Part shown: in pieces, positions 15,841 to 16,140 of the stretch
How the letters are laid out: each line of letters begins with the position of its first letter
Numbering within the stretch: the stretch's first letter is position 1
Sequence record: PQ511147.1
Direction: 5' to 3' (one strand)
Source of the DNA: Escherichia phage NHEP3
Length of the DNA stretch: 44,039 nt
The notes under the pieces: generated by a model
Database searches by the model: none
What the model saw: only the letters and a program-made list of their open reading frames with translations
Told to the model about the DNA's origin: nothing
Made by a program: the position numbers and the translations under genes

Positions 15841-16140
15841 GCGGGTCGTCCCGTTTTGTCCCGCACCTCTAAAACTGCATATTTACCCACTTACATTGCA
15901 TAGATTAAAAGCGGGACGGGGTGCTGTCCCGATCTGTCCCACCCCCAAAATGTGAATGTCTATGCAGTTTTCGTGCATAAACTAAGCGGGACAAAAAGCG
16001 GGACAGACAGGAGGCGGGACAAAGCGGGACAGCACCCCGTCCCCTCCAGTGCTGCCGCGGGTTTTAGCCGATCGGGACAGCGGGACAGCACCCCAGTCTT
16101 TCAGACTAGACGGGGGTCAATGGCCCCCCTCGTCTGAGAC
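15841..16140. repeat. iteron array (GCGGGACA in direct and inverted copies) plus a conserved GC-rich hairpin; copy A of a duplicated element
   Basis: About 11 copies of GCGGGAC(A/G) or its complement; the stretch 15975-16140 is near-identical to 43470-43640. Confidence 0.6.

Follow-up and report, generated by a model that had tools for sequence, protein, structure and literature searches.

A non-coding gap in the tail operon of Escherichia phage NHEP3, between the G/GT tail chaperone gene and the tape-measure gene, holds a cluster of short repeats followed by a hairpin, and the same element recurs once more in the genome. The question raised by this locus (15841-16140 of sequence record PQ511147.1, whose entire stretch of 44,039 nucleotides is called the window here) is what such a duplicated element does. 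The original prediction had named three candidate functions, a binding array for a phage transcription factor, a replication origin and a structured RNA, and of these the replication origin is the best supported. The element in 15841-16140 is real, conserved and functional, and we place at about one in two the probability that its two copies are iteron-type origin modules bound by the phage primase-helicase. This reading, drawn from sequence and comparative analysis, would give the role of primary origin to copy B, next to the primase-helicase gene, while copy A, which is 16.4 kb away in the tail operon, would be a second origin or a partner of copy B akin to the crr site of P4.

Copy A occupies 15952-16147 and copy B 43445-43641. 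A repeat search returned them as a direct repeat of 165 nt (15952-16116 and 43445-43609, 82% identity) and a second block (16112-16147 and 43606-43641, 86% identity), and their mean column identity in a pairwise alignment is 86%. Each copy contains six direct GCGGGACA iterons, at least one inverted iteron and an imperfect palindrome of 49-50 nt. The iteron GCGGGACA occurs 15 times in the window against 2.1 ± 1.3 times in dinucleotide shuffles, none of 100 of which reached 15, and 12 of the 15 sites fall within 15857-16087 or 43479-43580; CGGGACA occurs 21 times where 6.05 are expected. With this excess and with copies that are 82-86% identical, the predicted duplicated iteron-plus-hairpin element is confirmed. 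The order of parts is common to both copies (an AT-rich box, four direct iterons, an inverted GTCCC, a spacer of about 28 nt, two iterons, the palindrome and an ACGGCAAC box), as are the iteron start-to-start spacings of 12, 16 and 10 nt, with the last two iterons 8 nt apart, and both copies thus carry at least three short direct repeats beyond chance, as is expected of an iteron-type origin.

The non-coding gap around copy A measures 383 nt (15828-16210), in line with the roughly 400 bp first estimated, and runs from the TAA stop of the chaperone T-part (15825-15827) to the tape-measure ATG (16211). It opens with an intrinsic terminator on the plus strand after the G/GT chaperone gene (15830-15859; AAACGGGAC, a loop, GTCCCGTTT and then a T run), the homologous site of which is annotated as a rho-independent terminator in HK578, and the stem of which is made of iteron sequence, with CGGGACA at 15833 and a minus-strand GCGGGACA at 15857-15864. 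Beyond it the repeat search found a left arm specific to copy A, consisting of inverted iterons on the minus strand (15913-15946; TGTCCC twice and GGGAC), which encloses the AT-rich box and iterons 1 and 2, pairs with 16010-16043 at 88% complementarity, and is kept in other Dhillonviruses, JL1 included. Because of this upstream inverted arm and the iteron-bearing terminator, the element of copy A reaches the left edge of 15841-16140. The AT-rich segment (15947-15985, 69% AT) contains the palindrome TATGCA-N7-TGCATA at 15961-15979 and a GTGAAT...TATGCA box, and is a candidate unwinding region and/or site for a second protein. It is followed by the four direct GCGGGACA iterons on the plus strand (15986-16031, starting at 15986, 15998, 16014 and 16024, with 0.86-0.91 identity among genomes), by a minus-strand inverted half-iteron (16032-16043) whose GTCCC at 16039-16043 forms GGGAC-N8-GTCCC with iteron 4, and by a spacer of A type, CCAGTGCTGCCGCGGGTTTTAGCCGAT (16044-16072), which resembles the spacer of distant lineages (GGGTTT..GCCGA). 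Iterons 5 and 6 (16073-16087, plus strand; CGGGACA at 16073-16079 and GCGGGACA at 16080-16087) abut the 49-nt hairpin (16094-16142), in which CAGTC pairs with GACTG, TCAGAC with GTCTGA, GA with TC and a G-run with a C-run around the loop TCAATGG (16117-16123). The plus-strand ACGGCAAC box at 16180-16187 is a conserved companion of the hairpin and belongs to the most over-represented octamer family of the window.

Copy B has the corresponding parts in an AT-rich segment (43440-43478, 77% AT; TGAATAGTTATGCA and TATGCA-N7-TGCATA at 43454-43472), a plus-strand iteron array (43479-43580; GCGGGACA at 43479, 43491, 43507, 43517, 43565 and 43573, an inverted GTCCC at 43533-43537 and a spacer of B type), a 50-nt hairpin (43587-43636) with the loop TCTGTCA (43611-43617), and a plus-strand ACGGCAAC box (43662-43669). 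The two loops are as originally given. The module starts about 70 nt past the primase-helicase stop codon, and its first iteron lies 107 nt past it. One DnaA box (TTWTNCACA) is present in the whole window, at 19742, and none is near either copy.

The window is a circular Dhillonvirus (HK578/SO-1-like) coliphage genome, and its element region matches 158 GenBank phage records at 80-95% identity by BLAST, nearly all of them Escherichia or Shigella Dhillonvirus (HK578, SSL-2009a, JL1, SO-1 and others). BLAST with the element gave 332-370 matches across 158 records, typically two per record. Both copies were aligned from seven genomes (the window, SO-1, LM40P1, AV129, rolling, HK578 and SSL-2009a) and are present in all seven other Dhillonvirus genomes inspected, the six aligned and JL1. 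Every Dhillonvirus genome examined has exactly two elements, at the same two positions. A "third place" of the repeat in some records (JL1) proved to be only the inverted arm of copy A, with no third element.

Across the seven genomes, hairpin arms have an identity of 0.94-0.99, whether A copies, B copies or A and B are compared, and the iteron blocks one of 0.81-0.91, both above the 0.65 identity of four-fold degenerate sites in the neighboring tape-measure gene, which we take to mean that the iterons and arms are under purifying selection and that both copies are old. The spacer depends on position, with an identity of 0.91 among A copies, of 0.70 among B copies and of 0.56 when A is compared with B, and the identity of the loop is 0.31 among B copies and 0.87 among A copies. 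Since copy B of HK578 carries TCAATGG, the loop of copy A in the window, the loop difference is ordinary drift and not a copy-specific trait. The difference had been offered as a sign of selection on structure rather than recent duplication alone; the conclusion holds, although the argument for it is a weak one, as the loop varies freely at both sites. That the duplication is old is borne out by the A-B spacer identity of 0.56 and by the presence of a two-site layout in lineages with only 46-47% primase-helicase identity. The GenBank record of SO-1 annotates a repeat "region A" before the tape measure and a "region B" after the helicase-primase, so the duplicated repeat region was already on record, its function and wider distribution not; we found no paper analysing the function of the duplicated repeat regions.

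Outside the genus, loci (here numbered with the prefix L) were gathered through homology to the primase-helicase protein, and pre-tape-measure loci through tape-measure homologues on the same contigs or in the same lineages. The same module stands directly after the primase-helicase gene in at least 10 lineages with protein identities of 37-70%, beginning about 40-110 nt past the stop codon, and with a shared order of an TGAATAGTTATGCA box, direct iterons, one or more inverted iterons, a spacer (often GGGTTT..GCCGA), direct iterons, a long hairpin, TTATTCA/TATGCA, ACGGCA[AG]CA and a promoter. The iteron itself differs between lineages: it is GCGGGACA in Dhillonvirus and the 68% lineage (L352), TCCGACA in L142, GGGATAA in L143, GGGGATGA in L147, CGGACAA in L169, GGGGAGA in the Cornellvirus PhiSTP1, TTGCGAGT or TCGCAA in L353 and L355, GGGACA in L361, TTCCGCACA in L359, and of GGGAT type in L354 and L360. 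Four further loci have a complete element in the gap from the DUF1799 (T) chaperone gene to the tape-measure ATG, and each of these pre-tape-measure copies outside the genus carries the iteron of its own lineage: GCGGGACA in L363 (the 68% lineage), GGGAT[AC] in L364 (the same contig as L354), GGGAT/AGGGA in L365 (the same contig as L360) and CTCGCAA in L366. Such a concerted change of the repeat at two loci strongly argues for one lineage-specific, trans-acting DNA-binding protein. As the two-site layout is found where the primase-helicase is only 46-47% identical, it is, by these sequence comparisons, older than the genus Dhillonvirus. What is new here is the module with lineage-specific iterons after the primase-helicase gene in at least 10 lineages, several of which also have a matching pre-tape-measure copy.

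The TGAATAGTTATGCA box upstream of the iterons is kept across lineages that have different iterons (43446-43459 in the window, with a degenerate form at 15952-15966), and from this pattern it is probably the site of a second, conserved protein. The box is inverted in L361 (3520-3560), and GTGAATAGTA is found at divergent promoters of Kagunavirus (L356 positions 1422 and 4965). Pattern scans of IMG/VR with GCGGGACA-N-GCGGGACA and TGAATAGTTATGCA gave, among the matches listed, mostly chance hits, L169 and L205 being kept after filtering, and a search there for loci by their tape-measure gene was overwhelmed by distant ones. L205 (7239-7400 of IMG/VR contig 3300037153_000557) is on an unrelated 55-kb viral contig and has TGAATAGTTATGCA, then TGGACAT iterons and a palindrome just upstream of a zinc-finger primase-like gene, which makes it another iteron array linked to a primase gene.

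Both hairpins of the window fold at -28.4 kcal/mol, with z-scores of -3.6 for copy A and -4.4 for copy B. In 16 elements from about 12 lineages the hairpin is in every case an imperfect one of 15-24 bp in three tiers, with arm sequences that differ, examples of the outer stem being CAGTC/GACTG, ATCATCTA/TAGATGAT, ATCCTC/GAGGAT, TAGTCTTAG/CTAAGACTG and TACTCTAAAG/CTTTAGAGT, and of the inner stem GGGGGG/CCCCCC, GGTGG/CCACC, GGGCGGG/CCCGCC and CTCGGAGAAA/TTTCTCCCGAG. The covariation that the original prediction had proposed to look for is therefore seen between lineages, as compensatory change, and not within Dhillonvirus, where none is visible because the stems are invariant. The reverse strand folds equally well or better in 11 of the 16 elements and no plus-strand-specific excess of G-U pairs was found across them, which is the behavior of a DNA palindrome and not of a plus-strand RNA. 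Between the G-run and the C-run, the loop holds an inverted iteron in L135/LM40P1-B, L142, L169, L361, L364, L365 and L366; judging by sequence, this loop-embedded iteron has decayed in the window, where it is degenerate in copy B (TGTCAC against TGTCCC) and absent from copy A. After the main hairpins come AATAAGG (A) and CATAAAA (B); a terminator scan did not call these hairpins and, having no U-tract after them, they are not intrinsic terminators.

The candidate for the protein that binds the iterons is the primase-helicase (41108-43372, plus strand; 754 amino acids), which we examined through Pfam, PHROG 3228, invariant columns, structural models, fold searches and per-segment identity. Its N-terminal part has the invariant residues D87 and D89 (DxD), H120 and D163 and is AEP-like, with weak PHROG primase matches for residues 15-177, and it is followed by a zinc motif (C246/H252/C271/H273/C279). 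The helicase core (357-531) belongs to Pfam AAA_25 and is RSF1010-RepA-like, its fold being closest to RecA-family ATPases that include RSF1010 RepA (1g8y/1nlf/1olo; TM-score 0.60-0.62). No Pfam or NCBIfam model spans the N-terminal or C-terminal parts. A winged helix is predicted at about residues 666-737, and the protein ends in an acidic tail, DDDLKD. The C-terminal 75-90 residues are the least conserved segment, with 0.23-0.32 identity against about 0.6 in the helicase core. Modeled alone with 26 homologues, this segment reached a pLDDT of 80 and the topology H-beta-H-H-beta-beta, and its top Foldseek matches are all winged-helix DNA binders (MarR-family PcaV, a MepR-DNA complex, histone H1, the ORC2 winged helix, Rio2 and TFE). 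A TALE-like match of the C-terminal profile (43079-43369, residues 658-754) to BurrH (4cj9_A), with a summed E-value of 3.9e-35, was rejected as homology because it is the sum of about 20 weak, individually non-significant repeats (3-14 bits each) and is probably inflated by their near-identity. The resemblance between the motifs GFSxxEIVKxAGxGG and RGFSQADIVKIAGNxGG in this match remains a lead on a helix-GG-loop-helix.

Over about 12 lineages, classes of the putative recognition helix track classes of iteron in a qualitative manner: helices starting with STK or NTT go with GCGGGACA, RRP with GGGAYA or CSGACA, RY with GGGGAKRA, YxK with TTGCGAG, and RYSDA with TTCCGCACA. The primase-helicase gene is also the sole conserved neighbor of the array across lineages. 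Binding of the iterons by the winged helix of the primase-helicase is what we infer from this sole conserved neighbor, from the adjacency of gene and array in at least 10 lineages, from a predicted fold that falls in the least conserved segment, and from the class-level match of helix and iteron. A plasmid search returned no plasmid replicon with a primase-helicase homologue, except for one phage-like 44-kb record.

In the mechanism that we propose, direct and inverted GCGGGACA iterons would dock one lineage-specific DNA-binding protein, which may be the phage primase-helicase acting through its C-terminal winged-helix domain. Multimerization on the array could then put the RepA-like hexameric helicase onto the DNA at the neighboring palindrome of 49-50 bp, at the AT-rich box or at both, and the AEP-type primase domain might start synthesis nearby, possibly, and here we speculate, at the ACGGCA[AG]C box. 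Copy A may serve as a second origin in its own right, or assist copy B in cis much as crr does in P4. The layout of the array, the purifying selection upon it and the joint change of iteron at both sites are what the comparisons show; which protein binds and that the element serves replication are inferred. An origin would be expected to place its array beside the gene of the cognate initiator, and that is the arrangement of copy B and of at least 10 lineages; copy A, at its distance of 16.4 kb, is not adjacent.

Several observations weigh against this reading. The spacer is GC-rich, and the sole AT-rich stretch beside the iterons is 39 nt in each copy (69% AT in A, 77% in B) and resembles a protein site too, by virtue of TATGCA-N7-TGCATA. 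GC skew and cumulative skew track gene orientation, with a maximum at about 28 kb and a minimum at about 40 kb, and give no origin signal at copy A or copy B. Cornellvirus PhiSTP1 has the post-helicase copy only, with GGGGAGA sites clustered solely at 17008-17153, so that one copy suffices for this phage. In L138-L145 and Kagunavirus the winged-helix-bearing protein is present with no adjacent array after its gene; the Kagunavirus primase-helicase is 33% identical, and L138-L145 have terminators and reverse genes after the gene. The Foldseek probabilities for the C-terminal model reach 0.99, but the E-values are weak (0.01 or above), and since L361 and Dhillonvirus share a GGGACA core with dissimilar recognition helices, the covariation of helix and iteron is class-level only. 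Finally, both copies point in the direction of transcription and, in Dhillonvirus, each stands at the head of a transcription unit, which would fit a transcriptional role as well.

A further sequence signal accompanies the element. No octamer family of the window is commoner than ACGGCA[AG]C, which has 36 sites on the plus and 14 on the minus strand, and CGGCAGC, ACGGCAG and AACGGCA are among the four most enriched heptamers. Within genes there are 33 sense sites against 6.0 ± 2.3 after synonymous-codon shuffling and 11 antisense sites against 2.1 ± 1.5. The same words head the lists of six other Dhillonviruses and of Cornellvirus, with the strand bias reversed in JL1, which was deposited in the opposite orientation, and a 50-kb stretch of E. 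coli K-12 has only 5 + 3 sites. Nearly all lineages have one box on the 3' side of the hairpin, at a distance of 16-44 nt, which L145 has expanded to six copies of (GGCAGCAT). The octamer may signal priming or loading, act in RNA or do something else, and through its over-representation a sequence signal new to phage replication or RNA biology could come to light. A bolder version of the origin proposal, which we hold to be decidedly unlikely, would make both elements directional couplers of origin and late operon, with the primase-helicase on the iterons, loaded at the palindrome, a fork that runs co-directionally with each late unit, and ACGGCA[AG]C as the priming or loading signal. If it were true, a group of common enterobacterial siphophages would have an undescribed genome-wide replication signal and a two-origin layout hard-wired to the tail operon.

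The orientation of the two copies also leads to an alternative that is possible, if on balance unlikely, in which the element is a boundary or regulatory module of transcription units and the phage protein bound to the array is a roadblock, insulator or activator that heads the late units (lysis, terminase, head and tail-tube genes for B; tape measure, tail tip and fibers for A), with timing set, for example, by titration as genome copies rise. Both copies are oriented with the flanking transcription, and each precedes a promoter in Dhillonvirus. After copy A, which lies between the terminator at 15830-15859 and this promoter, it is the plus-strand extended -10 TGATACAAT (16166-16174) of the tape-measure and tail-tip unit, a Dhillonvirus-specific addition kept in 7 of 7 genomes, in which TACAAT (16169-16174) is preceded by TG; after copy B it is TTGCAC-N17-TATATT at 43796-43824. 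Near-consensus sigma-70 promoters stand 60-100 nt after the element in distant lineages, and the position of the ACGGCA[AG]C box would suit a transcript start. The spacing between element and next promoter is, however, not fixed (26 to about 190 nt), the near-consensus promoters of distant lineages should need no activator, and the pre-tape-measure copies of L364 and L366 are inside an operon with no terminator and no recognizable promoter, L366 having about 30 nt, ribosome-binding site included, between hairpin and tape-measure ATG, which weighs against promoter activation. A consensus promoter scan found no sigma-70 site near copy A or B, by criteria that also miss the TTGCAC-N17-TATATT promoters; TGATACAAT went uncalled because of its poor -35, and the weak -35 is explained by the extended -10 TG. 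An activator-dependent sigma-70 late promoter would be expected to have its activator sites set at one distance and phase from a poor -35 promoter at each copy, which is not the pattern seen, and the original suggestion of such a promoter is not upheld. Promoters are instead marked by a different motif: those of the form TTGCAx-N17-TATATTGGTTGCA on both strands carry TTGGTTGCA (TTGGTTGC(A)), and the "late" promoter at 43796 is of the same design as the minus-strand ones. Sites of this motif are at 43796-43831 (plus), about 31083 (minus) and about 10258 (minus), and also at 29386/29399, 26353, 40571, 43385, 43420 and 43708, so that it flanks copy B on both sides; its lineage variants are GTTGGCTGC (PhiSTP1), GTTGGCAGC (L354) and GTTGGCCGC (L355). 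From its sequence context the motif is probably the operator of the small helix-turn-helix (HTH) regulator encoded at 40768, a more natural target for it than the iterons. This 109-amino-acid protein (HTH_23, sigma-70 region-4-like) had been suggested as a binder of the array and is an unlikely one, as it occurs only in Dhillonvirus and the 68% lineage and is replaced by unrelated XRE-type proteins in all other lineages, both those with the same architecture, among them L361 with its GGGACA core, and those that lack the element. Nor is there a conserved, dedicated regulator that follows the iterons.

Genome packaging offers another explanation for a cluster of repeats, pac sites being orientation-dependent repeat clusters, and one could take the iterons for binding boxes of the small terminase and the palindrome for the region of headful cleavage. 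Dhillonviruses do package by headful with a preferred pac site, the position of which is not given (PMC9022532, PMC13348001), and several deposited genomes are linearized about 50 nt past the end of the copy B match; such record start points may be arbitrary, there are two complete copies where a single site would be expected, neither of them within or beside the small-terminase gene (4347-4997), whose start is about 4.6 kb past copy B, and the neighbor that is conserved across lineages is the primase-helicase gene, not terS, all of which makes a pac site very unlikely. The hairpin could also function in RNA, as an RNase III-type processing or stabilizing site or as part of a small RNA in a read-through transcript, where it would separate replication mRNA from late mRNA at copy B and chaperone mRNA from tape-measure mRNA at copy A. 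An irregular 15-24 bp hairpin with arms that covary in 16 elements, co-oriented with transcription everywhere and inside an operon in L364-L366, would suit this, and the copy B hairpin is probably transcribed because no terminator separates it from the primase-helicase gene. Still, we would give a structured RNA very little credence: Rfam 15 has no gathering-level match in the window and nothing for copy B, with only sub-threshold miRNA-hairpin noise on the large inverted repeat at E-value thresholds, the minus strand folds as well or better in most elements with no G-U excess on the plus strand, and the linked iterons, in both orientations, in the loop, and changing coordinately at two loci, behave as protein sites in double-stranded DNA. 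Scarcely credible, lastly, is a selfish or neutral repeat like a miniature inverted-repeat transposable element, duplicated into a tolerant intergenic gap. Two copies in non-coding DNA and the lack of the second in Cornellvirus would accord with it, but not the fixed number and positions throughout Dhillonvirus, the strong purifying selection on iterons and arms with loop and spacer free, the use of the same two positions by lineages with different iterons, or the lack of target-site duplications and terminal inverted repeats.

The wider genome was laid out from Pfam, PHROG and the annotations of SSL-2009a, SO-1 and HK578. An exact 127-bp terminal duplication returned by the repeat search (1-127 = 43913-44039) indicates that the window is a circular assembly with an overlap and that the true genome is 43,912 bp. 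Plus-strand genes run from the HTH regulator (40768-41097) and the primase-helicase through copy B, small genes, lysis, terminase, head and tail-tube genes to the G/GT chaperone (ending at 15827), and after copy A continue with the tape measure (16211-18853) and the tail tip and fibers to 28161; the minus-strand genes (28194-40594) encode DNA polymerase, a single-stranded DNA-binding protein (SSB), nucleases, a helicase and methylases. A tRNA/tmRNA scan of the window found none. Three near-identical intrinsic terminators (TAAGGGGCCnnnnTGGCCCCTTTTT) lie within the structural operon at 9422-9446, 15110-15134 and 28169-28193, the last of them bidirectional at the switch to the minus-strand genes. 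The tail-fiber gene has 42/63-nt periodic repeats at 26869-27120, and TCGTCG-type repeats, encoding acidic Asp/Glu runs on the minus strand, occur in the SSB-like gene and a 256-amino-acid gene (36822-37336 and 39948-40253).

Among coliphages and Salmonella phages, Dhillonviruses and their relatives are some of those isolated most often, and they are used in defense-system screens (HK578, SECphi4/18, BASEL phages) and therapy work. We found no characterization in the literature of their origins of replication or late-gene control. If the modules are origins bound by the primase-helicase, they would provide a defined minimal replicon to engineer with, orthogonal protein/iteron pairs from nature with at least 8 iteron types on one scaffold, and a testable second origin or crr-like site fixed at the chaperone/tape-measure junction, which is normally tight. 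Should they be a transcription boundary or a pac site instead, the comparative map would still pinpoint the cis elements to mutate.

Known replicons resemble the proposed modules in part. P4 has two separated iteron clusters, ori and crr. Its alpha protein binds the origin repeats through a winged helix (PMC4234260) and, like the protein described here, has a primase, a helicase and a C-terminal winged helix in that order in one chain, and as in P4 short iterons in both orientations form two separated clusters on a small genome. This is an analogy of architecture only, with no sequence match of the primase-helicase to P4 alpha in PDB and no homology shown: the primase here is AEP-like with DxD, not Toprim, the helicase is AAA_25/RepA-like, not superfamily 3 (SF3), the iterons are unrelated to TGTTCACC, and each phage copy is a complete module with a large palindrome, copy A lying 16.4 kb from B in the tail operon. 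In pRN1, plasmid replication requires a stem-loop immediately past the 3' end of a gene whose product joins primase, helicase and winged helix; this stem-loop is the proposed origin and works when displaced (PMC4234260). A pRN1 ORF904-type origin has also been proposed for Bordetella phage BIP-1. The phage module likewise has an origin-like structure just 3' of an AEP primase/helicase/winged-helix gene with a small repressor gene preceding, and the large, structure-conserved stem-loop directly 3' of the rep gene that marks this type is found in the 16 elements with their differing arms. Unlike pRN1, which has no iterons and an SF3 helicase, the phage hairpin is always coupled to lineage-specific iterons and a RepA-like helicase, and homology to the SF3 helicase and prim-pol of ORF904 was not found, the helicase being AAA_25/RepA-like and the PHROG primase matches of residues 15-177 weak.

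The oriV of RSF1010 (IncQ) combines RepC iterons and the ssiA/ssiB hairpins, used for primase entry, with the RepA helicase and the RepB' primase (PMC4234260), and the phage modules are similar in having iterons beside a hairpin and a helicase core like RepA. They differ in that three separate proteins do there what one would do here, in that two ssi hairpins on opposite strands stand in place of one palindrome, and in that the phage has no RepC homologue and iterons of 7-8 bp as compared with 20 bp. Initiator-specific iterons immediately 3' of the initiator gene, or in lambda within it, are a trait shared with SaPI/PICI, with PIME, whose rep-ori has iteron specificities that vary between related elements (bioRxiv 10.64898/2026.01.12.698999), and with the lambda ori, the iterons of which are within initiator gene O (PMC11447400); each of these has a single origin whose center is AT-rich where the phage has a GC-rich palindrome, and none repeats it within a structural operon. 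Geminivirus and CRESS-DNA origins also place lineage-specific short direct and inverted iterons against a GC-rich stem-loop, but there the loop is an invariant nonanucleotide nicked by an HUH Rep, whereas in the phage no part varies more than the loop, and the Pfam and PHROG scans identified no HUH endonuclease in the window proteins that they covered. The modules are unusual in that several lineages keep a complete second one between the tail chaperone gene and the tape-measure gene, that the palindrome embeds an iteron, and that an octamer spread over the whole genome accompanies them.

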